In this document: piece after piece, positions 1,399-29,980 of the stretch | How the letters are laid out: every line of letters begins with the position of its first letter | How positions within the stretch are numbered: the first letter of the stretch is position 1 | Virus record (IMG/VR): IMGVR_UViG_3300009320_000045 | Coordinates: 1 to 41,152 of that record | Source: a virus | DNA length: 41,152 nucleotides | Reading direction: 5' to 3' (one strand) | Made by a program: the position numbers and the translations under genes | The notes under the pieces: model-generated | Told to the model about the DNA's origin: nothing | The model's database searches: none | The model's input: the letters and a program-made list of their open reading frames with translations, nothing else

Positions 1399-1415
1399 CA
1401 AGCAAGGAGAAAACA

Positions 1416-1694
1416 ATGGCATCTGAACAAAAGATCAACCGGGCATTCCTGTGGACCAAGGATCTTCTTATCCTGATGATAGCGGCGGGTGGAATCTTTG
1501 CGGCGGCTAGCAAGTTCTGGTTGCTGCCTACTGCCAATGCGGAGAAGATCGAGGTCAATGTCGTTCACATCAAAGAAACCAATGCGAAAGTTGATGATCT
1601 TGGTTTGAGTATGGTCAGACAGGAGGCGCACCAAGAGGATGTTATTCGGCGCCTGGATAGGATACAATTGAAGCTAAACGGAGGGAACCCATGA
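1416..1694 (+). CDS. small membrane-anchored coiled-coil protein
   Basis: AAGGAG lies 7 nt upstream of ATG 1416; the ORF-track start at 1296 falls inside the previous gene. One TM segment (LLILMIAAGGIFAAA) is followed by a heptad-like tail. The stop overlaps the next start (ATGA). Confidence 0.6.
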   Translation: MASEQKINRAFLWTKDLLILMIAAGGIFAAASKFWLLPTANAEKIEVNVVHIKETNAKVDDLGLSMVRQEAHQEDVIRRLDRIQLKLNGGNP

Positions 1695-4110: not shown

Positions 4111-4561
4111 AAATCGGTATGAGTATGGTCCTTTATTTCTAGTTGGGTTCTTTGCAGTTCTCGCGATGCTCGGGTGGTTGTTGGTTTTTGCGTGGTCGTC
4201 CTGCGGCCAGACGGTGGATCAAATCGAGGCGGCCGCGCAGGAGGTCTTTGACAGCATCACATGGGACCAGGAGGAATACAAGCGCAAGCATGGAAGATAC
4301 CGGCAAGGCAAAGCTGATGTTGATGGGATCCCAATTGACATTCACGTTTACGATGGACCCCATGGCGTCGGCTATGTGGTGGAGGCCGAGTGCATCCGCA
4401 ATGACAGGACCTTCAAGCGCTCCATCAATTATGGACCGGAGGAATGGAAAACAAGGAGTTGGCGTGATGTTACAGGGGATGCTGCTCCTGCTGTTTCTCC
4501 TGATGTCCTCACCCGCCCACGCCGCAGAGATCCGGGTTCACATACCCGACCATCTGATTGA
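4091..4561 (+). CDS. membrane-anchored hypothetical protein
   Basis: N-terminal TM segment PLFLVGFFAVLAMLGWLLVFAW. An alternative start is ATG 4103. The last 95 nt overlap the next gene in another frame, and that C-terminal tail looks low-complexity. Confidence 0.5.
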   Translation: MGYPMIRNRYEYGPLFLVGFFAVLAMLGWLLVFAWSSCGQTVDQIEAAAQEVFDSITWDQEEYKRKHGRYRQGKADVDGIPIDIHVYDGPHGVGYVVEAECIRNDRTFKRSINYGPEEWKTRSWRDVTGDAAPAVSPDVLTRPRRRDPGSHTRPSD

Positions 4562-4742
4562 GGAGGGCGCCAAGTGGCATCACTACTACAAGGAGCCACG
4601 GCAGGAGAGCAAAGAGCAGTTCGTGTTAGACCGCGTGATCGAGGACTCTGAGCAAGCATTGGACACCCTGGTCTACATCAGCACATGGGGCAGGGTATCA
4701 AGCTGCGAGGATGCCGGCATCACGTTTGAAGTGGTAGAATAG
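4467..4742 (+). CDS. small secreted protein
   Basis: AAGGAG at 4453..4458 precedes ATG 4467. Signal peptide MLQGMLLLLFLLMSSPAHA|AE. Only the 3' part of ORF-track 4143..4742 is accepted. Confidence 0.55.
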   Translation: MLQGMLLLLFLLMSSPAHAAEIRVHIPDHLIEEGAKWHHYYKEPRQESKEQFVLDRVIEDSEQALDTLVYISTWGRVSSCEDAGITFEVVE

Positions 4743-4760
4743 GAGAAAACGGAGGTAGTC

Positions 4761-5021
4761 ATGAAGAAGCTGATTGCATTGGTTTTGATCGGATCGCTGT
4801 TCGCGTTTGCTCCTGTGGCCTTTGCCGCAGAGGAGGCGCCCGAGCAGGGGTTCATTGAGAGAACCATTGAGGTTGCCCTGGTGGTGCCGCGCTTTGCCGG
4901 CCGGTTCGGTTGGGGCATTGTCAAGACCGTGGACCGCATTGGGATCCAAACGCTTGACAAGGCGTTTGAAACCATCGGCAAAGCTCTTGGGACGGAGCCA
5001 AACACTCCGCTGTGGGAATGA
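4761..5021 (+). CDS. small secreted protein
   Basis: GGAG-type RBS. Signal peptide MKKLIALVLIGSLFAFAPVAFA|AE, with the same M(R/K)KLI start as the 1691 and 3328 genes. Confidence 0.65.
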   Translation: MKKLIALVLIGSLFAFAPVAFAAEEAPEQGFIERTIEVALVVPRFAGRFGWGIVKTVDRIGIQTLDKAFETIGKALGTEPNTPLWE

Positions 5022-5275
5022 GCGACGAGCAGAAACCTGGTCTTTTAGCCAAGGTCGGGGAGGCGGTTGATAAAGGCCGCCTCCCTTCTGTTTTGACCTC
5101 AACCCTCTCGCTTGCTTTCTTTGTGTCGATCATCATGTATGGCGCAGGGTGGGCGTGGCTTACCTACCACAAGCTCTTGCCCGAGTTGATCGGTGAGCTT
5201 TTGGATCCGCTCTGGAAGCTGGTGCTGCTGGTTGGAACCCCATACCTGGCCGCGCGAGGAATGAAGAAAGCGTAA
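5018..5275 (+). CDS. putative holin (two TM segments, class II-like)
   Basis: ATG 5018 overlaps the previous stop (ATGA); the ORF-track start 5012 is a GTG. 85 aa with two hydrophobic segments (LSLAFFVSIIMYGAGWAWL and LWKLVLLVGTPYLAA) and a basic C-terminus RGMKKA. It sits directly upstream of the spanin pair. Confidence 0.45.
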   Translation: MSDEQKPGLLAKVGEAVDKGRLPSVLTSTLSLAFFVSIIMYGAGWAWLTYHKLLPELIGELLDPLWKLVLLVGTPYLAARGMKKA

Positions 5276-5283
5276 GGTGATTT

Positions 5284-5496
5284 ATGGGATTGCCGGGAAT
5301 ACCACAAATCCTGGGGATGGGCGCGGCGATCGTGTATCGCTGGCTGGATCCTCGGGCAAAGAAGGACAGGTTGCTTGATGCCAAAGAGAACATCACAAAT
5401 CTTAAAGCCAATCGTGACCGCGCTGATCGGCTTGCTGTTATTGATGCCGAGCTTATCAGGGTGCAGCGGGAGATCGACCGGAGAGCGGGAGATTAG
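5284..5496 (+). CDS. putative i-spanin (Rz-like), unusually short
   Basis: 70 aa. An N-terminal hydrophobic segment (GIPQILGMGAAIVY) is followed by a charged helical region. A lipoprotein ORF starts inside it in the +1 frame. Confidence 0.45.
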   Translation: MGLPGIPQILGMGAAIVYRWLDPRAKKDRLLDAKENITNLKANRDRADRLAVIDAELIRVQREIDRRAGD

Positions 5497-5614
5497 ACGC
5501 GTTTGGGGACCGCCCGGCGCCGATCTCAATAAAGAGTTCAAAGAGCAGACTGGACACGATACGCCGCCTTGGGATTGGATGCTCTTGCCTCTTGAGGATT
5601 ACAACGCGCGGTGA
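5378..5614 (+). CDS. putative o-spanin lipoprotein (Rz1-like), overlapped architecture
   Basis: ATG 5378; the ORF-track start 5375 is a TTG. Signal peptide plus lipobox: IVTALIGLLLLMPSLSG|C. The mature part is about 49 aa and contains several Pro. It starts within 5284..5496 in the +1 frame and runs 118 nt past its stop. Confidence 0.55.
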   Translation: MPKRTSQILKPIVTALIGLLLLMPSLSGCSGRSTGEREIRRVWGPPGADLNKEFKEQTGHDTPPWDWMLLPLEDYNAR

Positions 5615-6084
5615 CTGAGTTCGGAATCGGTACCATTGCCTCTGTCTCATTGATCGGCTTGGCGCTCGGGTGCTTTTTGTGGATGTGGGGTGGGAGGTCT
5701 GACAAATGGATACGAAGAATCCTCGGGTCACTAGTGATTGCCTCCACTGTGAATATCTCAGCAGTGATGATGGGCGTGTGGGGTTGGCAACTCACGCTAC
5801 TTTTTCCTGCTTTATTCACCGGGTCCTCTCAGGGATATGGAGGCGACACCACTTGGGAGAAGATTTGCCGAAGGACCTTGTTTGCGGCAGGAATGGTGGC
5901 TGCCGGTTTCATTTGCGTTTTAGTCCTTGGTCCTAAAGCGTGGATGGTGTTCGTTCCTCATGTCGGCATTGCAGCATGGAGTATCTGGCTTGGAACTAGG
6001 AACCCGCTCCACGCCGCAGCTGAGGAAGTGTTCGTTGCGCTCACGCTCTACGCAGGGCTGTTGATGTACCCTTTTCTCAAATAA
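5611..6084 (+). CDS. polytopic membrane protein (about 5 TM), function unknown
   Basis: GTG 5611 overlaps the o-spanin stop (GTGA). 157 aa with repeated hydrophobic stretches. It is the last gene before the terminator. Confidence 0.55.
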   Translation: MTEFGIGTIASVSLIGLALGCFLWMWGGRSDKWIRRILGSLVIASTVNISAVMMGVWGWQLTLLFPALFTGSSQGYGGDTTWEKICRRTLFAAGMVAAGFICVLVLGPKAWMVFVPHVGIAAWSIWLGTRNPLHAAAEEVFVALTLYAGLLMYPFLK

Positions 6085-11755: not shown

Positions 11756-12286
11756 ATGGCAGACCTGACTAGAGTATATCTTCATGTTGAATGCGAAATA
11801 TGTGGAGAAATCTATGCACAGCAGGAGAGGGTACACCAAAAAGCGAAATGGAAAAATCGGTGCAGGTCACACCGGAGAGCGGTCAATTTATGCCGCGGAT
11901 GCGGAAAAGAGATTTATAGGACATCAAAGAAATGTAAAAGCTGCGCCCAAATAATAAGAAAGCCCAAGGTATGCCTTTGTTGTGGAACGCCAATATCCTA
12001 TAAAGCAAAAATTTGTCTCCGCTGCCACAACAGATTTCAAGATCGCGGGAAGTCAAGGGAGCGCACAAAATTCCAAAACTCAAGACCCTGGATGGAGGTA
12101 CGAGAACGATGCTTCGAGAGAGACAGATACCAATGTCAGCGGTGTGGCAGGAGCCGAGGCGGAGTAGTGCTAAACGCACACCACATCAAACCGTGGAAAT
12201 CGCACAAAGACGGCAGGTTAAAGCTCGAGAACCTCATCACTTTATGCAAGCCGTGTCACTACTCTGTGCATTGGGGTTGCTTATAA
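11756..12286 (+). CDS. HNH endonuclease with N-terminal multi-CxxC zinc ribbons
   Basis: CQRCG..LNAHHIKPW..NLITLCKPCHYSVH is an HNH motif. Five additional CxxC pairs lie upstream. The 5' half is visibly AT-richer than its neighbours. Confidence 0.8.
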   Translation: MADLTRVYLHVECEICGEIYAQQERVHQKAKWKNRCRSHRRAVNLCRGCGKEIYRTSKKCKSCAQIIRKPKVCLCCGTPISYKAKICLRCHNRFQDRGKSRERTKFQNSRPWMEVRERCFERDRYQCQRCGRSRGGVVLNAHHIKPWKSHKDGRLKLENLITLCKPCHYSVHWGCL

Positions 12287-12606
12287 GCGCGCCGGCTCAT
12301 GCAGCGACTGCCTCCTGGTTCAGCCGCGAAAGTTGCCTCCGGGAGGGGACATCCGGGATTATGGCAAACGGCATGAAGCTAGAAGATGATTACCTGATCT
12401 GCGCCTCATGGGATTACCCGCTCGGGACATGGCTGCGAGTCCGGGCGAACGGCAAAGAAGTGATCGTGATTGTCGCAGACCGGGGACCGAACCGAGCGCT
12501 CTACCGGCAAGGCAGGGTGTTGGATCTGAGCGCGAGAGCGTTTAAGCGATTATCTCCCCTGTCTGCTGGCTTGGTGGAACTTGATAGCGTGGAGGTATTA
12601 TCGTGA
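12244..12606 (+). CDS. secreted RlpA-like double-psi beta-barrel protein (candidate lytic transglycosylase / endolysin)
   Basis: Internal ATG 12244 of ORF-track 12013..12606. Signal peptide MQAVSLLCALGLLISAPAHA|AT. ASWFS..TSGIMANGMKL..ICASWDYPLGTWLRVRANGKEVIVIVADRGP matches the RlpA/DPBB core. Confidence 0.6.
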   Translation: MQAVSLLCALGLLISAPAHAATASWFSRESCLREGTSGIMANGMKLEDDYLICASWDYPLGTWLRVRANGKEVIVIVADRGPNRALYRQGRVLDLSARAFKRLSPLSAGLVELDSVEVLS

Positions 12607-14136: not shown

Positions 14137-14410
14137 TTCAATTGGTAAACCAGTGTTGGTTACTACCGAGTTTCGAGGTGTGTTCTTTGGGTATCTTAAG
14201 GAGCAGGATGGGAGAGAATCTTTAACTCTTACCAAAGCAAGGAACTGTATCTACTGGTCGTCTGACGTGGGTGGGTTCTTAGGATTGGCGTCTAAGGGGC
14301 CATCTGATAGTTGTAAAATTGGGACGTTGGTGGATGAACTAACAATCTACAAGATTACCAGTATTACCCCTGTCTCTAAAGAGGCGGCAGCAAAATGGCT
14401 CAACGCATAG
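14129..14410 (+). CDS. conserved-looking hypothetical protein
   Basis: AAAGGAGGA RBS. 93 aa. Contains VLVTTEFRGVFFGYL..ARNCIYWSSDVGGFLGLASKGP. Confidence 0.7.
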   Translation: MSDSIGKPVLVTTEFRGVFFGYLKEQDGRESLTLTKARNCIYWSSDVGGFLGLASKGPSDSCKIGTLVDELTIYKITSITPVSKEAAAKWLNA

Positions 14411-14415
14411 AGGTT

Positions 14416-14880
14416 ATGACGAAAGAGCTGGTGCTTCGTACCGTCCTGTTCGGTGCCTGTCGAGATCGAATCCCTGATGTTGGAACACCCATAAGTAGGC
14501 TTTCCCAAAGTGATCTAATTTGGGGGGAACGGATCTTGACCAAGAAAGAGAGAGCATCACTTGTAATTCCGGTTTGGTGCTCCGGCGACGGCTACGGCTA
14601 CGGCTCCGGCTCCGGCTACGGCTCCGGCTACGGCTCCGGCTCCGGCTACGGCGACGGCTCCGGCGACGGCTCCGGCTACGGCTACGGCTCCGGCGACGGC
14701 TACGGCGACGGCTACGGCGACGGCTACGGCTCCGGCTACGGCTACGGCTCCGGCTACGGCGACGGCTACGGCTCCGGCTACGGCTACGGCTACGGCTACG
14801 GCTACGGCTACGGCTACGGCTCCGGCAATAGCGCTATAGAAAAAACATTAGGTAAACTCTTTGGTAAGAAGAAACCTTGA
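14416..14880 (+). CDS. Gly-Tyr-Ser-Asp low-complexity repeat protein
   Basis: ATG 14416 lies just after the previous stop, with AGAGG upstream; an alternative start is 14395. A 55-aa N-terminal domain is followed by 41 X-Gly dipeptides and then a basic tail, NSAIEKTLGKLFGKKKP. Confidence 0.7.
   Translation: MTKELVLRTVLFGACRDRIPDVGTPISRLSQSDLIWGERILTKKERASLVIPVWCSGDGYGYGSGSGYGSGYGSGSGYGDGSGDGSGYGYGSGDGYGDGYGDGYGSGYGYGSGYGDGYGSGYGYGYGYGYGYGYGSGNSAIEKTLGKLFGKKKP
14581..14826 (+). repeat. 41 tandem hexanucleotide units NNC-GGC (TAC, TCC or GAC followed by GGC)
   Basis: Read directly: 21 TACGGC, 13 TCCGGC and 7 GACGGC units, uninterrupted, with no synonymous codon variation. Confidence 0.95.
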
Positions 14881-16434: not shown

Positions 16435-16775
16435 GCGAAACCGATCTAGTCAACGCTTGTCTTTTCCTGCTGCGGACCCTGGATATTGAAGCGTGGCGGC
16501 AGCAAGCAGGAGGTATACTTGTTAAGGGGAGCCAGGGAAGGCATTGGGTCCGGCTCGGTCCGGCCGGGGTGTCCGACATCACCGGCATCCTTCCCGATGG
16601 GCGCCGGCTGGAAGTTGAGTGCAAGCGGCCGGGCAATCGTCTGACTAAAGATCAGATGGAGTTTCAGCAGATGATCCAACGCAACAACGGAGTGGCCATT
16701 ACTGTCTATAATGCAAAACAGCTTGGGGTACTTCTTACTCAACTATCTGGAGGGGAAAAATGCGAATCAGCATAA
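16431..16775 (+). CDS. VRR-NUC domain nuclease
   Basis: GVSDITGILPDGRRLEVECKRPGNRLTKDQMEFQQMIQRNNGVAITV gives the D..ExK..Q layout of VRR-NUC. ATGA coupling. Confidence 0.7.
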   Translation: MSETDLVNACLFLLRTLDIEAWRQQAGGILVKGSQGRHWVRLGPAGVSDITGILPDGRRLEVECKRPGNRLTKDQMEFQQMIQRNNGVAITVYNAKQLGVLLTQLSGGEKCESA

Positions 16776-17017
16776 TTGCAATTGCCTTGGCGCTTCTCAT
16801 GTGCGCGCCGGCATATGCGCAACCAAAGACCGAAGGCGAAATACTTAAAAACCTTCGCGAGTCAAAGAGCCGGATTGAACAGGTACTTGCAGAACTCAAC
16901 CAACAGCGTATAAAATATCAGAGGGATTATCTCAAGGTGCTTGGCGCAATCGAGGTCCTTGAATCGCTGCGCCGGCAGGAGATTGAGAAAGCCATTGAGG
17001 AAAAAAGTGGCGAATAG
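16760..17017 (+). CDS. small secreted coiled-coil protein
   Basis: GGAGGGG RBS. Signal peptide MRISIIAIALALLMCAPAYA|QP. The remainder is heptad-like. Confidence 0.65.
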   Translation: MRISIIAIALALLMCAPAYAQPKTEGEILKNLRESKSRIEQVLAELNQQRIKYQRDYLKVLGAIEVLESLRRQEIEKAIEEKSGE

Positions 17018-17507
17018 AAAACCCCACAAAAAACATAAAAAGCATGAGTATAAGCGCAAGAATGCGCACGGCAAAAATGACGTAGGCCGCAAGATCATCT
17101 ACACCCGCAAGTATGTCCTGGATGAATTACAGCTTGTCCTTACTCGCCTCCTTGCCGATAAGCCCGAGGCCACCCTGAATGGTCCCAAGCGGAGTATCTA
17201 TTTCATATCCGCCCTTTTTGAGGACCGCCCCTATTCCTCGGATATGTTCAACAGATGGCCGAAGATGTTTAAGGGTGACGAGGAGATCGAAAACCTCATC
17301 GCCAAAGTTAAGGACATTCTTGCGGGGCGCGCTTGGAACGACGGCATTCGCGGAATCCTCAGTACCGGAATGTGTAAGTTCCACCTCATCAATAATTGCG
17401 GCGCCCGGGAGATTGAAAGGGTAGATGTGTCTGGCCGCCTGGATCACTTCGGCTTCATGCGCGAGGTTATCCAGAAGGCAAAAGGCGATCCGGAAGCCGG
17501 AGATTAA
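17007..17507 (+). CDS. basic DNA-binding protein, possible terminase small subunit
   Basis: GTG 17007 with GAGG 6 nt upstream. Lys/His-rich N-terminus. GRKIIYTRKY and the C-terminal MCKFHLINNCGAREIER loosely resemble HTH-type TerS proteins (GRPxxY..FWLKNRxxxxWRD). The similarity is weak. Confidence 0.4.
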   Translation: MANRKPHKKHKKHEYKRKNAHGKNDVGRKIIYTRKYVLDELQLVLTRLLADKPEATLNGPKRSIYFISALFEDRPYSSDMFNRWPKMFKGDEEIENLIAKVKDILAGRAWNDGIRGILSTGMCKFHLINNCGAREIERVDVSGRLDHFGFMREVIQKAKGDPEAGD

Positions 17508-17513
17508 ATTGGC

Positions 17514-17542
17514 TTGACTTCTCCAGATTGTGATAGGATATT
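17514..17542 (+). promoter_or_regulatory. possible sigma70-type promoter
   Basis: TTGACT (17514..17519), a 17-nt spacer, then GATATT (17537..17542), in the 98-nt gap in front of the secreted-protein/Wzy_C gene pair. Confidence 0.35.
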
Positions 17543-17573
17543 TCCACAGCACAGCAACAAGGAGAACTTGGGG

Positions 17574-17609
17574 ATGTTTCACACTTCAATAGGCAGGAGG
17601 AAGCTATGA
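17574..17609 (+). CDS. 11-codon upstream ORF (leader peptide MFHTSIGRRKL)
   Basis: AAGGAG lies 9 nt upstream of ATG 17574. Its TGA overlaps ATG 17606 (ATGA). The AGGAGG RBS of the downstream gene lies inside it. Confidence 0.3.
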   Translation: MFHTSIGRRKL

Positions 17610-18331
17610 AGCGTTGGCTATTACTTACAGCTCTGATCCTCGGTCTTGCAGCTAGTCCGGCTGCCGCCGTTGTGAATGTTCAAGAAAGCGGTGTGGATCA
17701 AGGTGATGCTGTTCACCTTAATTTCAGCGAAAACTTTGATGTCACAGGCGACTATTCTACTAAGGAAGTTGCCTTTTCCAGCACCGATGCAAGCCGGATT
17801 ATCACATGGGCGCCGGATGAGTTCATGCTGGCTACCCACCCAACCGATAACGCCGGTGAGTGTCGCCGCTACACAGCACTTTCCACTTCTACGACACCTG
17901 GATTTGAGATCACCACATCCGGCACGACCCATGTGACCGGTTTTATTTCATGGTCTGACGGTGAAGATAGTCCGGTCCAAAAGAAGTTCCGCGTTCCCGC
18001 TGATTACCGATCTGGCGGTGCCTTCCGCGTACTGGTTGGAAGAAACAATACCGATGCCGGCAACAACCCGCCAGCAATCGATTACGCAGTATATGTTGAC
18101 CAAACCAATACCGCCCTCGACACCACCGCAACCAATCAAACCGCCTCTGCTCTTTCGGCAGCTAACTCAGATGGATCGCCGGAGGAAAAGACGCTCAGTG
18201 TTTCTACCGACTTCGCGTCACTGGCAGCGGGTGACTATGTTACCGTCGAGTTTTGGCGAGATGATGTCAACACTAGCACGGATGACCTGCGTTTGTATTA
18301 CGCAGAATTCTATTATTCAGCTAACGAGTAA
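17606..18331 (+). CDS. secreted beta-rich protein of unknown function
   Basis: AGGAGG RBS. Signal peptide MKRWLLLTALILGLAASPAAA|VV. 241 aa, rich in T/S/D/N. Confidence 0.7.
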   Translation: MKRWLLLTALILGLAASPAAAVVNVQESGVDQGDAVHLNFSENFDVTGDYSTKEVAFSSTDASRIITWAPDEFMLATHPTDNAGECRRYTALSTSTTPGFEITTSGTTHVTGFISWSDGEDSPVQKKFRVPADYRSGGAFRVLVGRNNTDAGNNPPAIDYAVYVDQTNTALDTTATNQTASALSAANSDGSPEEKTLSVSTDFASLAAGDYVTVEFWRDDVNTSTDDLRLYYAEFYYSANE

Positions 18332-18345
18332 TTCTTCCTGCTAAG

Positions 18346-19542
18346 GTGGCTCCCCGACGGCACCGAGGGATGGCAACTTTCCTCGGTGCCGTTCTCCTTT
18401 TAGGAGTCATTGGTTTTGTTCCAGAAGCTCAGATCCCCATCCGTTCCGGCAAGCAAGCCCTTGTCGATCTTGGCCTAGTGTTTGGTCTTGGATTCCTACT
18501 CCCTTCTCGCTGGCTCAAACTTTTTTATTGGTGGTCATTGCTGGTGCTTTGCAAAAGGTTCACCCCGCATTCCCTCCTGGTTTTCTATACCCTCTCCATT
18601 TACCTTTTCGTTTTCTCCTTCGCGGTCCGCAAGGTTACGGAGGACCACTTAAATCTCATTGCTCGATGGATCCGCGGAATCACCATCTTCCAGTTGCTTT
18701 GGATGGGTCTGCAATTTTTCAACATGGATCCCATTTTTGTTGATGTCATGCCACCGGGAATGGACCCGCAGTATTGGGATCCAACCCGCCCCACCATCAC
18801 AGGTTTCTTGGATAACAGCATGTTGGCCGGATCCTACCTAGCGGTTGTCTCTCCCTTCTTTTTGCAGGGGCGGTGGAAATGGTTTTTGCCGGTTGTCTTG
18901 GGTGGGATTCTGATGGCCGGCTCAGAGGGGGCATTCCTCACAGCTATATTGATCCTTGCCTGGACCTGCTGGAGAATGTTCCGGCTGTCCGAAAAGCTAA
19001 AGACCTTGATGATGTACGGCACAATCTTCATCTGCACAGGGGTCCTCTACTACGAATGGGCGCACTGGCTTGTCGTTCAGGAGAACTCCAGGTTTTTCAT
19101 TTGGGAGAAAACAAAGGACCTCATCATGCTGGACAAGTTCATGCTGTGGACAGGATGGGGGTGGGGGCAATTCAGCGTTGCCTTCCCGGGGCTAGTCAGG
19201 CATTGGGAGATCGCGCCCTCGCACCTAAGCTGGACCCATACCCACAACGATTTCTTGCAGCTGTGGTTTGAGGCCGGCCTGATCGGGCTTGTCCTTGCCT
19301 GTGGCTTCATCGTTCAGACACTCCGGCCGGCGCTGAGGCGCATGGATCCCATCTGCACCGCTTGGACCGGATCCCTCCTGGGCTGGCTGCTGATAGCCGT
19401 CTGGTCATTTCCGGCGCAGACCGCCGGGCTGAATGTGGTAGGATTGATATTGTGGATCGGGGTTTTTGTTTTGGGGAAAGGAGAATGCCATGCCTGTAAC
19501 AGTTCGCAAGGGCAGCGGGGAGCGCCCCTGGAAGATAGTTGA
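18346..19542 (+). CDS. Wzy_C-domain membrane protein (O-antigen ligase / polymerase / O-oligosaccharyltransferase family)
   Basis: About 10 hydrophobic segments. WTHTHNDFLQLWFEAGLIGLVL matches the Wzy_C signature (HxHN-x-[FY]Lq..e.G..G). The start is uncertain: GTG 18346 or ATG 18370. Confidence 0.7.
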   Translation: MAPRRHRGMATFLGAVLLLGVIGFVPEAQIPIRSGKQALVDLGLVFGLGFLLPSRWLKLFYWWSLLVLCKRFTPHSLLVFYTLSIYLFVFSFAVRKVTEDHLNLIARWIRGITIFQLLWMGLQFFNMDPIFVDVMPPGMDPQYWDPTRPTITGFLDNSMLAGSYLAVVSPFFLQGRWKWFLPVVLGGILMAGSEGAFLTAILILAWTCWRMFRLSEKLKTLMMYGTIFICTGVLYYEWAHWLVVQENSRFFIWEKTKDLIMLDKFMLWTGWGWGQFSVAFPGLVRHWEIAPSHLSWTHTHNDFLQLWFEAGLIGLVLACGFIVQTLRPALRRMDPICTAWTGSLLGWLLIAVWSFPAQTAGLNVVGLILWIGVFVLGKGECHACNSSQGQRGAPLEDS

Positions 19543-19648
19543 GGTAGCGTCAGGCAAGGTAGTTGGATCTTCAACGAGTAAAGCAGATGCCGAAGCAAGT
19601 GCTAGAGCGAGGAACGCCGCCCACAGGGAAAAGACGTTGCTATCTTGA
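19490..19648 (+). CDS. small basic protein, 52 aa
   Basis: AAAGGAG RBS precedes ATG 19490. MPVTVRKGSGERPWKIVEVASGKVVGSSTSKADAEASARARNAAH. It overlaps the 3' end of the Wzy_C gene. Confidence 0.55.
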   Translation: MPVTVRKGSGERPWKIVEVASGKVVGSSTSKADAEASARARNAAHREKTLLS

Positions 19649-19650
19649 CA

Positions 19651-21144
19651 ATGGTTGAATCCGAGTTGACCGAAGTTGAGAAGCGTCAGCTTATTCGCAT
19701 TGTCCGGCGCGCGCGCGGGAATCTAGTCCACTACCGCAAACACCTACTGACCAACGAGGAGGCCGACGAATTACCCTCGGCTCCCTTCCACAAGCCCCTT
19801 TCGGATATCCTTCTCCTTGAGCAAGACAATTTCGCAATCGAAGCGTTCCGAGAATCCGCCAAGACCACCTACGCTATCCGGACCTACTGCATCCACGCGC
19901 TTCAATTCCCGCGACCGGAATCCGACTATATCGTAATCATCAAGAAAAATACCTCACAGGCCAGGAAACGCCTCAAGCAGATTGAGCGGGAATATCTTAC
20001 CAACCGGATCGTGTCCGGCAATCTCCATTCTATCGTTGAGCAATCGGGTGACGCCTTCGAGATCAAGGCATGGGATGAAAACGGAGAGCTTCACAGCGTC
20101 CGCATCGAGGCATACGGCAAGGGGGCATCCATCCGGGGTTTGGCGGACCGAGAGCGCCGCCCCAAAATTGTTATTCTTGATGACGTTCAGGACAAGGAGG
20201 ATGCCCAATCTGAAACGGTGCAGGAAACCGATTGGGATTGGTTCCTCTCAGATGTTAAGTTCCTCGGCAAGCGAAGCAGGATCTTCCTGATCGGTAACAA
20301 CCTCGGAGAGAAATCCATCATCGAGCGGGTAATCTCTCAGGACATCGACTTGCGCTTTCGGAAGATGAAGATCCCCATCGTCAATGATGATGGTAGCTCG
20401 GCGTGGCCGGAATATATGGACAAGGAGGAAATTGCCGAGGAGAAGGAATCGTACCGCAAGCTCGGCAAGCTCGACATCTGGTTCTTGGAGCGGATGTGCG
20501 AAGCAATCAGCGATGAAACGCGGGAGTTCCGCCGAGAGGATTTCCGGTACTACGGATCCATCCAGAAAGCTCCGGAACTGTCCAGGCAGGGCAACGTCTA
20601 CGTCCGCACGGACCTTGCGATTTCAGAAAAGAAGAAAGCCGACTACTCTGTGATTGAAGCCTTTGTGGTGACGCCGGAAAACCACTGGTTCATTCTCGAT
20701 GTCCTCTATGGCCATTGGGATCCCTACACCATGCTGGACTTGCTCTTTCAGGTAGTCACACGATGGACCCAATCCAGCGGCAGACAGATCTGCAATGTGG
20801 GATTCCCGCAGGTGGCCTATGAGAAAGCGTTTACCGCAATGGTTGAACATGAGAAAAAACGTCGCAACGTCTTTTTTAATACCATGGCACAGAAGCAGGA
20901 GCTTCAAAAGGAGCTACGGATTAAAGCGCTCCAGCCGCGCTTCCGCGCGCACACCATCTTTTTTCCTGATGAGGCTCCCTGGCTGGCCGAATTGGAGAGC
21001 GAGCTTTTAATGTTTCCCAAGGGTCTGCGTGATGATATTATTGACACAATGGCGAACAATGACCAGGAGATCCAGGTACCCATTGGGCAAGTAGCAGAGG
21101 CGAACCTGCCACGCTACGGCATATCGGATGCGGCATTGATTTGA
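19651..21144 (+). CDS. terL: terminase large subunit
   Basis: ATG 19651; ORF-track 19645 is a TTG. Walker-A-like FRESAKTT, Walker-B KIVILDDVQD and a C-terminal nuclease-like region (DLAISEKKKADYSVIE). Size and position fit TerL. Confidence 0.8.
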   Translation: MVESELTEVEKRQLIRIVRRARGNLVHYRKHLLTNEEADELPSAPFHKPLSDILLLEQDNFAIEAFRESAKTTYAIRTYCIHALQFPRPESDYIVIIKKNTSQARKRLKQIEREYLTNRIVSGNLHSIVEQSGDAFEIKAWDENGELHSVRIEAYGKGASIRGLADRERRPKIVILDDVQDKEDAQSETVQETDWDWFLSDVKFLGKRSRIFLIGNNLGEKSIIERVISQDIDLRFRKMKIPIVNDDGSSAWPEYMDKEEIAEEKESYRKLGKLDIWFLERMCEAISDETREFRREDFRYYGSIQKAPELSRQGNVYVRTDLAISEKKKADYSVIEAFVVTPENHWFILDVLYGHWDPYTMLDLLFQVVTRWTQSSGRQICNVGFPQVAYEKAFTAMVEHEKKRRNVFFNTMAQKQELQKELRIKALQPRFRAHTIFFPDEAPWLAELESELLMFPKGLRDDIIDTMANNDQEIQVPIGQVAEANLPRYGISDAALI

Positions 21145-21153
21145 GGAACCAAT

Positions 21154-21435
21154 ATGTGTACCGGCATTGAAATTGCACTGATAACTGCTACTGTTGCAGC
21201 AACCACTACAAGCGTCATTGCTGCCACGAAAAAACCCCCCTCCTTTGAACCTGCCTCCATTTCAGCGCAGCTGCCACAAGCCGAGCCGGTGGTTCCAGAG
21301 CCGGCAAAGATCATGGAGGACGCGCGGGAGGAAGCCAGAAAGCGATTAAGGGCAAGGACAAAAACGATTCTGACATCTCCGGTTGGCTTGGTGGCAGAAC
21401 CGGATATTAGCAGAAAAACGCTCCTGGGAGAATGA
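21154..21435 (+). CDS. small protein, MC-start / KTLLG-end paralogue 1
   Basis: 93 aa. MCTGIEIALITATVAATTTSVIAA (hydrophobic), then RKRLRARTKTILTSPVGL..RKTLLGE. Confidence 0.6.
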   Translation: MCTGIEIALITATVAATTTSVIAATKKPPSFEPASISAQLPQAEPVVPEPAKIMEDAREEARKRLRARTKTILTSPVGLVAEPDISRKTLLGE

Positions 21436-21884
21436 GGGTACGCCCACTTGAAAGAGGAGATATTGAAGGGACCATTGATCTCGCAGAGGAGATGTGGAAG
21501 GAATCCCCGCGTTACCAGAACCGGGACTTTTCCAGAGACAAGCTCTATAAGTTCGGGGAATCAATACTCCGCAACCCTCTATTGTGTGGGTTCGTTGCCG
21601 TCAACGGTGACAAGCTCGAGGGATTCTTTATCGGAGCTATTACAGAGTATTTTTTTGGATGCGAGAGAATCGCATCTGATTTTGCTCTTTTTGTGCCTCA
21701 TAGCCGGCGTGGAGGAATCGCTGCGATCATGCTGATTAAAGCGTATGAATCATGGGCGCGTTCCCACCACGTTGCTGAAATCAGTTTGGGGACCACAACG
21801 GCAGTTGACGAAGAAAGAACGGTGTCGTTATACAAAATGCTTGGATTCAATCCGGTTGGTACTGTCTGCAAGAAGATAGCTTGA
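21432..21884 (+). CDS. GNAT-family N-acetyltransferase
   Basis: ATGA coupling. 150 aa. FVPHSRRGGIAAIMLIKAYESWA (acetyl-CoA R/Q-x-x-G-x-G/A region) and LYKMLGFNPVG are typical GNAT motifs. Confidence 0.7.
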   Translation: MRVRPLERGDIEGTIDLAEEMWKESPRYQNRDFSRDKLYKFGESILRNPLLCGFVAVNGDKLEGFFIGAITEYFFGCERIASDFALFVPHSRRGGIAAIMLIKAYESWARSHHVAEISLGTTTAVDEERTVSLYKMLGFNPVGTVCKKIA

Positions 21885-22127: not shown

Positions 22128-23741
22128 ATGGCACTTACAGCGAAAGAAATCGTTGACCGCGTCCGCCAACTCAAGGACGAGCGGAGTAATTGGGAAAGCT
22201 GGTGGCAGGATATTGCCAAGTTCTGTATCCCGCGCAAGGCCGAGATTACTGAACGCAAAGCAGCCGGCACCAAGTTTGATGCAGACAATTACGATTCCAC
22301 CGCCAGGGATTCTCTCAAGATTTTTGCGGCCGGCTTGATGGGGTATCTGACCAACCCCGCTACCAAATGGCTGAATCTGCGGTCCTCAAATCCCCGACTG
22401 ATGCAAAGCCAGAAGGTCAAGATGTTTTTTGAGGAGTCCAGCAATCAGATTCTACAGACATTTAGCAAATCCAATTTTTACCAGCAGCTTCATGAGTTCT
22501 ACTTGGATATGCCGAGCTTCGGCACAGCGGCTTTTTACTCTGAGGAGGACGTGCAAGATCGCGTCCGGTATTACGCCAGGAACGTCCGGGAGATTCTGTT
22601 TGAGGAAGATGATCGGGGGCGCGTCAAGACCATCTATCGGGTTTTTGAGCTTACCATCCGCCAGGCGTATGATCGGTGGGGAGAAAACGCCGGCAAGTCC
22701 GTCACGGAGCGATACGCGAAAAAGCAGTATGGAACCAAGGTTGAGTACGTTCAATGCGTGGGTCCCAGGGAAAAATATGATCCTACCAAGCGCGGTAAGC
22801 TCAACAAGCCCTTCCACTCAATTTGGGTGAATGTTCCGGATCAAAAGAAAGTGGATGAAGGCGGCTTTGAAGAAATGCCGTTTAACGTGACGCGCTTCAC
22901 CAAAGTTTCCCACGAAATCTACGGCCACTCGGCCGCCATGGATGTTTTCCCCGACATCAAATCCACCAACAAAATGATGTATTACATCCTGCGCGCCTCA
23001 GCAAAGGCAGTGGATCCACCGATTGTCCTGCCTCACAAAAACTACCTACTGCCTTTCAATTTCAATCCGTCGGGAGTTAATTACCAGACCCAAAAAACAA
23101 GCTCTGCCAGCGAGGAGAAAATCCAGTTTCTGGACCACAAGGGTAATTTCGCGGTAGGCAGAGACATTCTGATTGACCTGCGGGAGATCATCCGCAGAGG
23201 GTTCCATGTCGATCTGTTCCTGATGCTGACCGACATGAAAAACATGACCGCCACCGAGGTTGTCGAACGCATCCAGGAAAAGATGCTGATCCTGGGTCCG
23301 GTGATCGGCCGGTTGCAAACGGAACTCTTGCAGCCCATTGTGATTCGCACTTTTAACATTTTGGCAAGGAACGGTTACATCCCCCCCATACCGCAAGAAT
23401 TAGAAAATGCTGAGTATGAGGTTGAGTATGTTTCTGTCCTTGCCCAAGCTCAGAAGTTTTCCGCTGTCCGGACTATTCAGCAGTTTATAGCCATGATTGA
23501 GCAGATGGCCGCCATAGATCCGACAGTAGTGGATAAGTTTGATTCGGACAAAGCCGCTGATGTTATTGCAGACACTATGGGCATCACCCCCAAGATCATG
23601 CGCGAGGAGCGCGAATTGCAAGCAAAGCGCGAAGCCAGAGCGAAGCAGGAGGAAGCGGCCGCGAAGATTGCATTGACAAAAGAGGGGGCGGAAGCGGCTA
23701 AAACAGGAGCGGAGGCGGTAGCCACCGCTGCCGCCGCATAA
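22128..23741 (+). CDS. portal (head-to-tail connector) protein, podovirus type
   Basis: 537 aa. The N-terminus LTAKEIVDRVRQLKDERSNWESWWQDIAKFCIPRKAE resembles podoviral connector proteins. It is positioned after TerL. Confidence 0.75.
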   Translation: MALTAKEIVDRVRQLKDERSNWESWWQDIAKFCIPRKAEITERKAAGTKFDADNYDSTARDSLKIFAAGLMGYLTNPATKWLNLRSSNPRLMQSQKVKMFFEESSNQILQTFSKSNFYQQLHEFYLDMPSFGTAAFYSEEDVQDRVRYYARNVREILFEEDDRGRVKTIYRVFELTIRQAYDRWGENAGKSVTERYAKKQYGTKVEYVQCVGPREKYDPTKRGKLNKPFHSIWVNVPDQKKVDEGGFEEMPFNVTRFTKVSHEIYGHSAAMDVFPDIKSTNKMMYYILRASAKAVDPPIVLPHKNYLLPFNFNPSGVNYQTQKTSSASEEKIQFLDHKGNFAVGRDILIDLREIIRRGFHVDLFLMLTDMKNMTATEVVERIQEKMLILGPVIGRLQTELLQPIVIRTFNILARNGYIPPIPQELENAEYEVEYVSVLAQAQKFSAVRTIQQFIAMIEQMAAIDPTVVDKFDSDKAADVIADTMGITPKIMREERELQAKREARAKQEEAAAKIALTKEGAEAAKTGAEAVATAAAA

Positions 23742-26401: not shown

Positions 26402-26842
26402 ATGGCGACATACAAAGGTGTGAACAAAACGATCATCGATGCAGCCACCGCAGCTCACACAGTTGATCCTGGGTTGGCTGGTGGCAACGTCAAGGTGATG
26501 GTGGATACCTACGAGGCATCCGCCCTTGCCGTTGCTGACATCGTCGAAATGGGCAAGGACTTACCGATTAACTCTCGGGTCCTTGCAGTGTTGCTGGAGT
26601 TTGACGCTTTGGGTGGATCCATCACCCTTGATGTTGGTGATGCTGAGGATCCCAATCGCTATCTAAACGCGGTTGATGCTTCTTCGGCAGGAAGCCAATT
26701 GTCAAATCTGGTAGACGGAGTTGAGTACCATGTGGATAACACCACTGCCTCCACTCCCGATACTCAGGTTAATGTCACCATTGGCGGATCCGGCACAGCA
26801 ACCGGTACGATCAAATTAGTGGTGCTTTATACCCACGAGTAA
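26402..26842 (+). CDS. putative head decoration / cement protein
   Basis: AAGGAGGA RBS. 146 aa and beta-rich. It follows the capsid gene directly and precedes the terminator. Confidence 0.5.
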   Translation: MATYKGVNKTIIDAATAAHTVDPGLAGGNVKVMVDTYEASALAVADIVEMGKDLPINSRVLAVLLEFDALGGSITLDVGDAEDPNRYLNAVDASSAGSQLSNLVDGVEYHVDNTTASTPDTQVNVTIGGSGTATGTIKLVVLYTHE

Positions 26843-26884
26843 AGAGGCCGGTAGGGATCTGACCGGGGAGCAAACGGAGAGCGC

Positions 26885-26920
26885 GCGGGCCGGCCGTAGC
26901 AGGAGCCGGCCCGCCTTTTT
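26885..26920 (+). terminator. rho-independent terminator / attenuator after the capsid genes
   Basis: GCGGGCCGGC-N10-GCCGGCCCGC (26885..26914), a perfect 10-bp GC stem, followed by CTTTTT. Confidence 0.8.
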
Positions 26921-26932
26921 GTGGAGGTCACT

Positions 26933-27775
26933 ATGGCCGTCAGCAGCAAAGAAGCAATCGTTAATTTAGCGCTCCGGCGGATCGGTCAAAAAAAGATCAG
27001 TGACATCGATGACGCCGATGACACTGTAGCAGTAAAAGCCAATGACGTTTATGATATCCTTCGACAAGCGCTCCTGCGCGCATACCCATGGAACTTCTCA
27101 AAGAAATCCGCCATCCTTGGCCGTGTTGTAGATTCCGAAACCACCATCACAGGAGCCACCGCAGCTGACCCTGTTGTTATCACTGCTGCCAGCCACGGCT
27201 TATCCGATGACGATACTGTCTCAATCCGCGGCGTGGGCGGCATGATCGAGCTTAATGGCAAAACCTACACGGTAGCCAACGCCACCACCGACACCCTTGA
27301 GCTTGAGGATATTGATGGCGGGGATTATACGGCTTTCACTTCCGGCGGCACCATCGGCAAAGTCAGCGTTGTCGGGGATGAGGTAAATTGGGATAACCGG
27401 TATTATTTGCCATCCGACTATCTCAACATCTGGAGGATCAACGGCGAGCCGGAGAGCAGGATTAAATTTGCCATAGAAAATCCAAGCGGGTCCCGCAGAG
27501 AGCTTTTGACCGACGAGGATACCTGCCACATCAAATACATCTTCGATGTGGAGGATTACGAACTATTCGATGAAACCTTCGTAAAGCTCTTTGCGTTGCT
27601 GCTGGCCTCCAATCTGGCCTTTACCGTCAGCCAGTCCCGGACACTGGCAGAGGATCTGCAAGGGGAATATGAGATTGAGTTTGCGAAAGCCATGTTCGTA
27701 GATTCCTCCGAGGCGGGTACGCCAACAGATCCGATGCCGGATGAATCGTCCCCCATCATATCGGAGAGATCCTAA
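26933..27775 (+). CDS. tail tubular protein A / adaptor-like protein with an inserted beta module
   Basis: GGAGG lies 5 nt upstream of ATG 26933. SKEAIVNLALRRIGQKKISD..LLRAYPWNFSKKSAIL is typical of podoviral gp11-like proteins. The insert is ITGATAADPVVITAASHGLSDDDTVSIRGVGGMIELNGKTYTVAN. Confidence 0.6.
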   Translation: MAVSSKEAIVNLALRRIGQKKISDIDDADDTVAVKANDVYDILRQALLRAYPWNFSKKSAILGRVVDSETTITGATAADPVVITAASHGLSDDDTVSIRGVGGMIELNGKTYTVANATTDTLELEDIDGGDYTAFTSGGTIGKVSVVGDEVNWDNRYYLPSDYLNIWRINGEPESRIKFAIENPSGSRRELLTDEDTCHIKYIFDVEDYELFDETFVKLFALLLASNLAFTVSQSRTLAEDLQGEYEIEFAKAMFVDSSEAGTPTDPMPDESSPIISERS

Positions 27776-29980
27776 TTGCCAAAAGCCAGCCATATCCAGA
27801 CGAATTTAACTGCTGGCGAAATCTCGGAGAAAATATTTGGCCGGGTTGATGTCACAAAGTACGAGAACGGCGCCGAGCAGATTCAGAACTGGATAGTCAC
27901 TCCCCCCGGTGGGGCGCAACGCACGCCTGGGACGTACTATGTCGGTCAGACCAGGGAAGCCACCGGGACCGGCCGCCTCATCCCCTTCCAGTTTTCCACC
28001 AGCCAGACCTACATGATGGAGTTCAGCGACGGCAAGATCCGCTTCTACCGGAATCAGGGGCGTATTGTCGAAACGGCTGTCAGCATTACCGGCATTACAA
28101 AAGCCAGCCCGGGCGTAGTTACCGCAGCTGCCCATGGGTACTCCAACGGCGATAGCGTTGTGCTTTCCGACATCGGAGGCATGACGGAGCTTAATGGGCG
28201 GGAGTTCAAAGTGGCCAACGTCGCGGCCAACACCTTTGAACTTACTGATATGCAGACCGATGCCGACATTGATACCTCCGGTTTCACCACTTATACGTCT
28301 GGCGGGGACTCAGAAAAAATCTACGAGATTACGCAGCCCTATGCGGACGCGGATCTGAATGATCTCCATTACGCGCAGACCGCTGATGTCATGTATATCG
28401 TCCATCAGGATTACTCACCCAGGAAGCTGACCCGCACCGGCCACACCGCATGGACGTTGACACAGTTGGAACCCAAGGACTTCACAAACGGACCCTATCT
28501 GCCCGATAACATCACTGCAATCACCATGGAGCCGGGAGCAACCACAGGCAACACAACTCTTACGGCTTCGGCTGCTTTCTTTACAGAGGACATGGTGGGA
28601 TCTCTATTTAACCTCAATAGCGGATATTGCTATGTGACAGCGTACACTTCGACTACAGTGGTTGATATTACTGTCCTGTCCGATTTCGCAGACACCGTTG
28701 CAAGAACTGACTGGCTTGAGGGTGCCTGGTCTGATGAGAATGGATGGCCGCGCTGCGTGCAATTCTATGAGCAGCGCTTGGCCTTTGCCGGCACCACAGA
28801 AGAACCGCAGACCGCCTGGCTCTCTCAACCGGAGGAATACGAAAACTTTGAGGAGGGTAGCTCCGACGACGATGCCATCACCTACACCATCGCCACAGAG
28901 CAGGTCAATGCCGTCCGGTGGCTCTCTGCCGAGAAAGTTTTGCTTATGGGAACCTCCGGCGGCGTTTTCTCAGTTTCCTCCGGTACTGATGAGGTCCCGC
29001 TGACCCCAACGAATGTATTGGTCAAGCGCCAGACAACCTACGGTTGCCATACCATTGCGCCCAAAAAGATCGGTACCTTCAACTACTACATTCAGCGTGA
29101 TACCCTAACCATGCGGGAGCTTGCTTTCAACTTAGAGAAGGATTCCTACGAGGCGGGGGATATTACTATTCTATCCGATCACATCACCGGTCCGGGCGAA
29201 GGCATTATCGCCATGGACTACCAGCAATCCCCTTACAATATCCTCTGGTGTGTGCGCGATGACGGAAAGCTGGCCACCCTGACGCGACAGATTGAGCAGG
29301 AGGTTGCCGGCTGGACTGAGCAGACCACTGACGGAACCTATAATAGTGTTGCGGTCATTCCAGCGCAAACCGCCACCGAAGGGGATGAGGTCTGGTTCAT
29401 TGTCCAGCGCACCGTCGATGGCGTCACGCGCGGGTATGTGGAATATCTCAAGCCCTTCTATTGGGGTACCGACGACGATGACGCATTTCATGTCCATTCG
29501 GGTCTGACCTATTCCGGAGCAGCTGCTTCCACTCTAACCGGCCTCAGTCACCTGGAGGGTGAAACGGTTGATGTGTATGGTGATGGCGCCGCACTCGACC
29601 AAGCGGTGGTTTCCGATGGAGCAATCACCGTTAAGGATGGAGGAACCACAACAACAGTCACTAAAGCCCAGGTCGGTTTGCCTTACACTTCCACAATCAA
29701 GACGTTGCGCCTGGAAGCCGGCAGCGCCATCGGGACCGCGCAGGGGATGTTTAAGCGGGTCAACAATGTCATTGTCCGCGTCAAAGACACGCTGGCACTT
29801 AAGGTGGGTGACACGGATAGTCAGCACGCTCAGAGCATTTCCAGCGTCACCACCGGGGATATTGAGGCGCATCTGGATTCAGGGTGGGACACCAAGGGTC
29901 AAGTCATCGTAAAATGCGACAGTCCGGTGCCGTGTCATGTGCTGGCAATCATTAAACAGCTAATCACAGAGGATAGGTGA
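27776..29980 (+). CDS. tail tubular protein B / nozzle-like protein
   Basis: TTG 27776 lies directly after the previous TAA; no ATG or GTG follows in frame for about 80 codons. The N-terminus QTNLTAGEISEKIFGRVDVTKYENGAEQIQNWIVTPPGGAQRTPGTYYV is typical of this family. 734 aa. Confidence 0.6.
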   Translation: MPKASHIQTNLTAGEISEKIFGRVDVTKYENGAEQIQNWIVTPPGGAQRTPGTYYVGQTREATGTGRLIPFQFSTSQTYMMEFSDGKIRFYRNQGRIVETAVSITGITKASPGVVTAAAHGYSNGDSVVLSDIGGMTELNGREFKVANVAANTFELTDMQTDADIDTSGFTTYTSGGDSEKIYEITQPYADADLNDLHYAQTADVMYIVHQDYSPRKLTRTGHTAWTLTQLEPKDFTNGPYLPDNITAITMEPGATTGNTTLTASAAFFTEDMVGSLFNLNSGYCYVTAYTSTTVVDITVLSDFADTVARTDWLEGAWSDENGWPRCVQFYEQRLAFAGTTEEPQTAWLSQPEEYENFEEGSSDDDAITYTIATEQVNAVRWLSAEKVLLMGTSGGVFSVSSGTDEVPLTPTNVLVKRQTTYGCHTIAPKKIGTFNYYIQRDTLTMRELAFNLEKDSYEAGDITILSDHITGPGEGIIAMDYQQSPYNILWCVRDDGKLATLTRQIEQEVAGWTEQTTDGTYNSVAVIPAQTATEGDEVWFIVQRTVDGVTRGYVEYLKPFYWGTDDDDAFHVHSGLTYSGAAASTLTGLSHLEGETVDVYGDGAALDQAVVSDGAITVKDGGTTTTVTKAQVGLPYTSTIKTLRLEAGSAIGTAQGMFKRVNNVIVRVKDTLALKVGDTDSQHAQSISSVTTGDIEAHLDSGWDTKGQVIVKCDSPVPCHVLAIIKQLITEDR

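Follow-up and report, generated by a model that had tools for sequence, protein, structure and literature searches.

Enzymes of the Wzy_C family transfer a glycan from undecaprenyl pyrophosphate (Und-PP), at the periplasmic face of the membrane, to an acceptor, which is lipid A-core for the ligase WaaL, a lipid-linked unit for the polymerase Wzy, and a protein Ser/Thr residue for the O-oligosaccharyltransferases (O-OTases) TfpO, PglL, PglS, and TfpM (PMC9829042, PMC12800693). The layout of the active site is common to WaaL and the O-OTases (PMC12800693), and the dedicated O-OTases are all encoded immediately downstream of their single acceptor (PMC9829042). In this study, a two-gene cassette with a similar layout was analysed in a viral DNA stretch of 41,152 bases (IMG/VR record IMGVR_UViG_3300009320_000045; hereafter the window). 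Its first gene (17606-18331, + strand) encodes an exported protein of 241 amino acids, here called SP241, and the second (18346-19542, + strand) a 12-helix membrane enzyme of 398 amino acids with the Wzy_C/WaaL fold. We tentatively read the cassette as a phage-borne pair of acceptor and O-OTase, laid out like pilin-TfpO, ComP-PglS, and pilin-TfpM. The observations behind this reading are the modelled fold of the enzyme, its conserved residues that align with WaaL, the export of the partner, the strict pairing of the two genes and a hairpin at their junction; the donor, the acceptor and the expression ratio are what we infer from them.

The membrane enzyme

The original prediction had described the product of 18346-19542 as a Wzy_C membrane protein with roughly ten transmembrane helices and had named a profile search as its test. 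In this search the protein, which carries WTHTHNDFLQLWFEAGLIGL, matched Pfam Wzy_C (PF04932) above threshold (37.1 bits against a gathering cut-off of 31.7, E 3.4e-9, residues 184-318). No other Pfam family was reported at E up to 0.1, and NCBIfam gave no match at E up to 1, so that no curated ligase or polymerase model covers the enzyme. The AlphaFold model (predicted local distance difference test score, pLDDT, 91; predicted template modelling score, pTM, 0.88) shows 12 membrane helices instead of ten. When it was compared with folds in the Protein Data Bank (PDB), the top match was WaaL (7tpg_B, E 1.5e-4, TM-score 0.58), followed by RodA and FtsW with TM-scores of approximately 0.4. Lys and Arg residues are concentrated on short loops predicted to be cytoplasmic, which fits a topology with the N terminus inside and a periplasmic location of the largest loop. 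This loop of approximately 57 residues (residues 245-301; 19078-19248, + strand) contains Arg-249 (19090-19092) and the pair His-300-Asn-301 (19243-19248).

Alignments of 43 and 75 family members show Arg-249, His-300, Asn-301, Glu-309, Gly-311, and Gly-314 to be either invariant or conserved to 90% or more. A profile of the family matched the sequence of the solved O-antigen ligase WaaL from C. metallidurans (7TPG) with E 2e-10, aligning Arg-249 with Arg-265 and His-300 with His-313, and His-300 also aligns with His-338 of Escherichia coli WaaL. Comparison of the family with the Wzy-beta polymerase of phage D3 by hhalign, against a single-sequence template and hence with low sensitivity, gave a probability of 3% and E 0.015, in an aligned stretch of 109 columns with the HN motif among them. 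By these comparisons the enzyme appears nearer to ligase-type enzymes than to D3 Wzy-beta and falls in no curated subfamily. Because the Pfam score, the modelled fold, the topology and the conserved residues aligned with WaaL all agree, the enzyme is probably an active member of the Wzy_C/WaaL superfamily.

A word-indexed search with the enzyme retrieved only itself and one relative, and an exhaustive search was used to define the family. This yielded 508 cluster representatives at E ≤0.001, 74 of them at E ≤1e-10. All homologues with a precomputed Pfam entry carry PF04932, and nearly all of the 150 listed are approximately 340-420 amino acids long. The gene context of the distant cellular relative P0206 was uninformative, and P0227 is located in an ordinary polysaccharide cluster.

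The exported partner protein

The gene upstream of the enzyme was correctly foreseen to encode a signal-peptide protein. The N terminus of SP241, MKRWLLLTALILGLAASPAAA|VV, is a canonical Sec signal peptide of the AXA type (residues 1-21), followed by a variable linker (approximately residues 22-60) and a conserved beta-sandwich (approximately 61-241). The homologues (n = 52), none of which has a Pfam domain, are all built in this way, with a variable region between the signal peptide and a conserved domain of approximately 150-180 residues at the C terminus. A signal-peptide-like N terminus, called by our own rule-based check and not by SignalP, was found in 79 of 84 distinct family members; the remaining five are either truncated at the N terminus or fail only the Lys/Arg demanded by the rule. 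In some members the variable region is a long Ser/Thr-rich, fibre-like stretch.

No sequence match to SP241 was found in Pfam, PHROG, NCBIfam, PADLOC or the PDB. Its AlphaFold model (pLDDT 84) forms a beta-sandwich from about residue 61 that, according to Foldseek, resembles the carbohydrate-binding modules CBM15, CBM6, and CBM27 and jelly rolls of the MAM/ephrin type in the PDB. Within a viral library, its likeness is to the C-terminal portions of tail-fibre and collagen-repeat proteins from phages. Pilin features are absent from both sequence and model, which instead combine a Sec signal peptide with a beta-sandwich. The family has no detectable homology to the 546-residue fibre-like protein of the window or to a 134-residue protein (37445-37849), and none beyond the signal peptide to the 178-residue secreted protein encoded upstream of the enzyme in the related contig L001. 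By eye, a short N-terminal "V-x-V...G-x-A...F" stretch of this L001 protein is common to some SP241 members.

One strongly conserved element of SP241 is a hydroxyl-rich loop with the consensus L-[TS]-x-[ST]-[TS]-[AT]-P-G-L-E, which reads LSTSTTPGFE in the window (residues 92-101; 17879-17908, + strand). Ser or Thr occurs at residues 93-96 with frequencies of 0.87, 0.49, 0.73, and 0.86, and Pro-98 is present in 82 of 84 members. A second strongly conserved element, Y-[TS]-A-[ST], forms the C-terminal tail. In two homologues that have a signal peptide and no enzyme partner, the loop motif is weaker or lost. The loop is a candidate glycosylation site, and its S/T-A/T-P part is similar to the S-A-P core in WPAAASAP, the glycotag of PglL (PMC12645811).

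Pairing and genomic position of the two genes

Relatives of the cassette were gathered via the SP241 protein and comprise 40 loci on viral contigs, 2 from metagenome-assembled genomes and several other contigs. An enzyme-family gene lies directly 3' of the SP241 homologue in 40 of the 44 loci with at least 1100 nt of downstream sequence, and the two reading frames often overlap. Conversely, the gene upstream of the enzyme belongs to the SP241 family for all three enzyme homologues (3/3) on which, together with L001, this test rests. In two loci (L011 and L029) the genes appeared to be separated by 720-760 nt; a third cassette component was considered for these gaps and rejected, since each holds an HNH homing endonuclease gene on the opposite strand (L011, 6642-7211; L029, 5061-5594), inserted exactly between the SP241-type and the enzyme gene.

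The four exceptions to the pairing fall on two kinds of contig. L045 (4205-6220) and L046 (207-2631), high-G+C contigs of actinophage-like character, encode remote homologues of the C-terminal half of SP241 that have neither a signal peptide nor an enzyme partner. Each of these genes is followed by one for a large protein whose N terminus appears LamG-like by eye; the window has a Laminin_G_3 protein of its own, with a signal peptide, at 3328-4110. The other two exceptions, L039 and L040, have a different capsid type and just 1.1-1.8 kb of downstream sequence. In L039, L040, and L045 the homologue directly follows the major capsid gene. The signal peptide is linked to the partnership with the enzyme, as the signal-less homologues of L045 and L046 have no such partner, and on the evidence of gene order the SP241 and enzyme genes are one unit.

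The paired enzyme gene is within a phage late operon in 40 of 40 loci, and the cassette has two recurrent positions. In the window and in L002-L004 the cassette precedes the gene for the large terminase TerL, which had been predicted in the window and was verified at 19645-21144 (phrog_38, E 1.2e-70). In L007, L011, L014, L025, L029, L032, and L001 it lies between the decoration-like and tail adaptor genes. It is also found in L051, a phage of a different capsid family, and therefore occurs with at least two capsid types while its order is kept. In the original prediction the pair had been seen as inserted into the packaging module between a TerS-like gene and TerL. That description does not hold. 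Insertion is unsupported, since this pair occupies an identical position in the closest relatives, and others carry it inside the head-tail module. The location between TerS and TerL is no general description either, because the positions vary and L006 has its P22-type small terminase gene on the 3' side of the cassette. Absence of the pair from otherwise syntenic relatives had been put forward as evidence against a function; the opposite was found, with strict conservation.

Searches of 50,697 deposited phage genomes gave no match to either SP241 or the enzyme, and among 185,579 species genomes SP241 was found in only two contigs.

The junction hairpin and the upstream gap

A 15-bp GC-rich hairpin followed by the T-rich CTCCTTTTAG is located at the gene junction (18356-18393, + strand), inside codons 4-16 of the enzyme gene, and is terminator-like. 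The 90-nt junction region folds at -40.1 kcal/mol (z -4.3). The hairpin is shared by L003, with two compensatory pair changes. More widely, in 27 of 34 distinct loci the 100 nt past the stop codon of the SP241-type gene contain a hairpin whose strength exceeds that of at least 95% of windows drawn at random within the locus; the median is -24.1 kcal/mol against a background of -11.8. The hairpin sequences are unrelated among loci, and T-tracts follow many of them. In L007, L014, and L032 the strongest post-gene hairpin between capsid and adaptor follows the SP241-type gene. In the window, a canonical terminator-like hairpin, GCGGGCCGGCC...GGCCGGCCCGCC and then TTTTTG (26842-26920, approximately -26 kcal/mol), directly follows the gene for the 146-residue decoration-like protein. 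The start codon of the enzyme is probably the GTG at 18346, because L003 has GTG at this place and no ATG at codon 9. Together, the position and recurrence of the junction hairpin suggest attenuation, by which much SP241 and little enzyme would be made.

The 98-nt gap upstream of the cassette contains both elements that had been noted there, though neither withstood comparison. The sigma-70-like sequence TTGACT-17-GATATT (17514-17542, + strand) is present and matches at 9 of 12 positions; the number of such sites over 6 kb is at chance level (6 observed against 4.2 +/- 2.2 in shuffled sequence), and only its TTGAC is common to two relatives, where it aligns in L003 and L005. An upstream open reading frame of 11 codons, MFHTSIGRRKL (17574-17609, + strand), is preceded by AAGGAG at a distance of 8 nt and ends in a TGA that overlaps the start codon (ATG) of SP241. 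It is absent from the nearest relative with a differing sequence, having no ATG in L003 and no alignment in L005, and a regulatory role was dropped because of this lack of conservation; the reading frame is probably fortuitous. The preceding gene (16941-17507), earlier called TerS-like, matched only phrog_37580, a family of unknown function, with no match in Pfam, NCBIfam or the PDB, and its identity as TerS is unsupported.

Proposed function and alternatives

If the cassette is an acceptor and O-OTase pair, as proposed, both products would act as one functional unit in the host periplasm during infection. From the first gene would come an abundant Sec-exported protein with a variable, sometimes fibre-like stalk and a lectin-like beta-sandwich, and the weak GTG start and the terminator-like hairpin would keep expression of the second gene low. 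The enzyme would bind a host glycan chain, linked to Und-PP, on the outer side of the inner membrane, with Arg residues holding the pyrophosphate and His-300 serving as base, and would pass the chain to an acceptor. A host lipid-linked glycan would be needed because the phage does not have the genes for a full one, its only candidate being a GT2-like open reading frame below threshold (640-1398, E 0.006). The most likely acceptor would be SP241 itself, at Ser/Thr of the LTxSTAPG loop or near the C-terminal Y-T-A-S/T tail. Periplasmic O-glycosylation had been one of two functions offered in the original prediction, with the fibre proteins of the phage as acceptors. The distant fibre-like proteins at 1691-4110 do carry signal peptides, but the adjacent 241-residue protein is the preferred acceptor because the gene order matches that of the dedicated O-OTases.

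This explanation is ranked first because the two genes are strictly paired in a constant order, the presence of the enzyme goes with that of the signal peptide, and expression is probably unequal, all of which fits the layout of a dedicated O-OTase. Several points weigh against it. O-OTases cannot be assigned to a family from sequence (PMC9829042), and glycosylation is here a prediction. Known dedicated acceptors are type IV pilins, whereas SP241 is a folded, Sec-exported beta-sandwich, whose lectin-like modelled fold would suit a glycan-binding helper as well as an acceptor. The model shows a well-ordered candidate loop (pLDDT approximately 96), whereas PglL prefers disordered regions. Members of the enzyme family, with 340-412 amino acids, are smaller than every characterised O-OTase (420-600 amino acids) and have no extra periplasmic domain. 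In L001 the protein encoded upstream of the enzyme is a different one, with another C-terminal domain. The benefit to the phage of a glycosylated SP241 is not evident, and the phage Wzy_C enzymes characterised so far are all polysaccharide polymerases (PMC4815439, PMC13228068).

The main alternative, somewhat less probable and the other of the two functions offered in the original prediction, is a remodelling of the host surface glycan, in which the enzyme would be an alternative ligase or polymerase acting on O-antigen, capsule or exopolysaccharide, and the lectin-like SP241 would bind the glycan or block the host polymerase or ligase; the outcome would be protection from superinfection, or progeny spared loss on cell debris. 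The nearest solved and characterised relative of the enzyme is indeed a lipid A-core ligase, its size of approximately 400 residues is typical of WaaL and Wzy, the modelled SP241 fold is like that of carbohydrate-binding modules, and the same phage has many other envelope-targeted genes. Every studied phage Wzy_C enzyme serves seroconversion, and D3 adds the inhibitor Iap beside its Wzy-beta (PMC4815439; PMC13228068). However, D3 iap has 31 codons and lies on the opposite side of an acetylase gene, and is thus no counterpart of a 22-kDa secreted protein encoded directly upstream, and the profile comparison with D3 Wzy-beta gave a very weak signal. The enzyme matches none of the ligase or polymerase models of NCBIfam, a polymerase has no need of strict pairing with a highly expressed partner, and the cassette is located in late structural and packaging operons instead of a conversion region. 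An integrase had been reported missing from the genome; in a non-exhaustive scan of the reading frames of the 41-kb window, neither an integrase nor a lysogeny module came up.

Less probable still is a place for SP241 in the virion, as a head fibre or decoration protein that would receive its glycan in the periplasm and become attached to capsids once lysis mixes the compartments. Such a role would account for the gene position directly after capsid and decoration genes in many relatives, ahead of the strongest hairpin in L007, L014, and L032, for the homologues next to the major capsid gene, one of which (L045) has no signal peptide, for the long Ser/Thr-rich stalks of some members and for the likeness of the modelled fold to tail-fibre tips. 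In the window, however, a long distance separates the SP241 gene from the capsid genes, and it is behind the decoration gene that the terminator-like hairpin of the capsid unit is found. To our knowledge, no tailed phage assembles a virion protein from the periplasm. The least probable explanation is that the enzyme interferes with the supply of envelope precursors or with lysis, depleting or cutting Und-PP-linked intermediates at a late stage of infection and so weakening the envelope, with SP241 as an unrelated neighbour. The location in late operons and the relationship of the fold to the lipid II polymerases RodA and FtsW would suit this, and T7 has lysis genes between those for its small and large terminases. 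The pairing is nevertheless far too strict for unrelated neighbours, residues of WaaL-type transfer are conserved in the enzyme, and separate lysis candidates exist in the RlpA-like protein (12013-12606) and in a lipoprotein and membrane proteins (4091-6084). The acceptor and O-OTase pair therefore stays in first place, and we consider possible, with some reserve, its extension to a self-contained phage O-glycosylation system, in which a WaaL-fold enzyme of approximately 340-400 residues, the smallest known, would load host Und-PP glycans onto its abundantly exported, fibre- or lectin-like partner. In the boldest version, the glycoprotein would join the capsid after lysis, in an assembly step outside the cytoplasm.

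Genome setting and other envelope-targeted genes

The window has 53% G+C and an exact direct repeat of 119 bp at its two ends (1-119 and 41034-41152), which represents either genuine terminal redundancy or an overlap from assembly of a circular genome. Because of this repeat, the window is taken as a complete or circularly assembled phage genome. Judged from its genes, the late set is podovirus-like. Downstream of TerL, a GNAT acetyltransferase gene (21432-21884) precedes that for a T7-type portal (22128-23741; PF12236, E 4.5e-134); the acetyltransferase at this junction is kept in L003 and L014, and probably in L001, where only a weak Pfam match was obtained. The portal gene is followed, in order, by those for the scaffold, the capsid, the 146-residue decoration-like protein, the tail adaptor (26921-27775) and the nozzle (27776-29980). 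Both adaptor and nozzle have an inserted domain that matches E1_FCCH (PF16190; E 2.6e-9 and 4.8e-13, respectively), and this domain was recorded in the nozzle gene of L001 as well. The early region encodes RecT, PD-(D/E)XK nucleases, an HNH endonuclease and a VRR-NUC nuclease, and no polymerase was found among its scanned reading frames. The reading frame 14395-14880 contains a long low-complexity (GYGS/GDGY)n repeat, with an overlapping frame of (RL)n.

By the portal protein, the closest isolates are HTVC010P-type Pelagibacter podoviruses, with 37% identity. A related phage contig (L005/L006, 3464-3730) encodes an 88-residue protein that carries a PEP-CTERM sorting signal (TIGR02595, 25.7 bits; cut-off, 16), and its host may thus possess an exosortase and exopolysaccharide system.

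From its predicted signals, the phage exports unusually many proteins. In a run of envelope-targeted genes (640-6084), which opens with the GT2-like reading frame, a single-helix membrane protein (1296-1694) precedes the 546-residue fibre-like protein, which is rich in Ser, Thr, Gly, and Asp and has a signal peptide (1691-3331). Beyond the Laminin_G_3 protein are genes for a signal-anchor protein (4091-4561), a secreted protein of 86 residues (4761-5021), a 79-residue lipoprotein with an LSGC lipobox (5375-5614) and a 157-residue multi-helix protein (5611-6084). A candidate secreted endolysin is encoded at 12013-12606, where an RlpA/DPBB lytic-transglycosylase-like domain (PF03330, E 2.3e-10) comes after an internal signal-peptide-like stretch (MQAVSLLCALGLLISAPAHA). 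An 85-residue protein (16760-17017) with a signal peptide followed by a coiled coil, whose gene overlaps the start of the formerly TerS-like reading frame, is possibly spanin-like.

Comparison with known systems

Full-text literature searches brought up no description of phages that encode such a transferase together with a secreted partner. The cassette recurs in many uncultivated phages and is missing from all the deposited phage genomes searched, and it thus represents a recurrent late function of environmental podoviruses that is entirely uncharacterised. If the pair is an acceptor and its transferase, it would be the first protein glycosylation system of the oligosaccharyltransferase type found in a phage, and glycoconjugate engineering would gain very compact enzymes that come with their own acceptor domain. 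Should the function be a remodelling of surface glycans, seroconversion-like chemistry would be expressed late in seemingly virulent phages, with a bearing on the avoidance of superinfection and of progeny loss on cell debris.

On score, modelled fold and catalytic residues, the enzyme is a member of the Wzy_C superfamily, and it departs in at least one of the features compared from each of the narrower groups (WaaL proper, the TfpO/PglS/TfpM class, phage polymerases of the Wzy-beta type, and PglL). WaaL, from C. metallidurans (7TPG/7TPJ) and E. coli, is the best match in sequence and fold, with 12 helices and with the loop Arg and the His aligned, and the enzyme fits the WaaL motif H-[NSQ]-X9-G-X-X-[GTY]. 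Unlike WaaL, it is encoded outside a lipopolysaccharide-core (waa) gene cluster, matches no ligase model, and has a short periplasmic loop and an obligate secreted partner. PglL has the accessory Pfam domains PglL_A and Wzy_C_2, whereas the enzyme has Wzy_C as its sole Pfam family, these two not being reported at the E-value limit given above.

The seroconversion modules (iap/O-acetylase/wzy-beta of D3, epsilon15 and the Acinetobacter baumannii prophage Wzy) likewise comprise a phage-borne enzyme of the Wzy_C family that uses host Und-PP-linked units, and D3 encodes a dedicated inhibitor of the host enzyme nearby (PMC4815439; PMC13228068). However, those phages are temperate, with an integrase beside the module, their enzymes are polymerases of marginal similarity to the cassette family, and none has a conserved 22-kDa secreted partner encoded directly upstream. 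The pairs of SEDS proteins and class B penicillin-binding proteins (RodA-PBP2 and FtsW-FtsI) also join a membrane glycosyltransferase of related fold to a dedicated periplasmic partner and use an Und-PP-linked substrate. They differ in that the glycosyltransferase is of another family (TM-score approximately 0.4), and SP241 has a cleavable signal peptide, no membrane anchor and no transpeptidase fold.

Closest in layout are PilA-TfpO (PilO), ComP-PglS, and pilin-TfpM, where a Wzy_C-type enzyme with a catalytic His is likewise encoded directly after the gene for one exported partner. The dedicated O-OTases have a periplasmic active site and Und-PP-glycan donors (PMC9829042, PMC12800693), as is predicted for the cassette, and a candidate Ser/Thr site lies in a conserved loop and near the C terminus of SP241. 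The cassette differs in that its partner is a Sec-exported beta-sandwich and not a type IV pilin, and in that its enzyme ends soon after helix 12, at 340-412 residues, whereas the dedicated O-OTases reach 420-600 residues with added periplasmic domains (PMC9829042). It differs further in being carried by phages, in their late operons.

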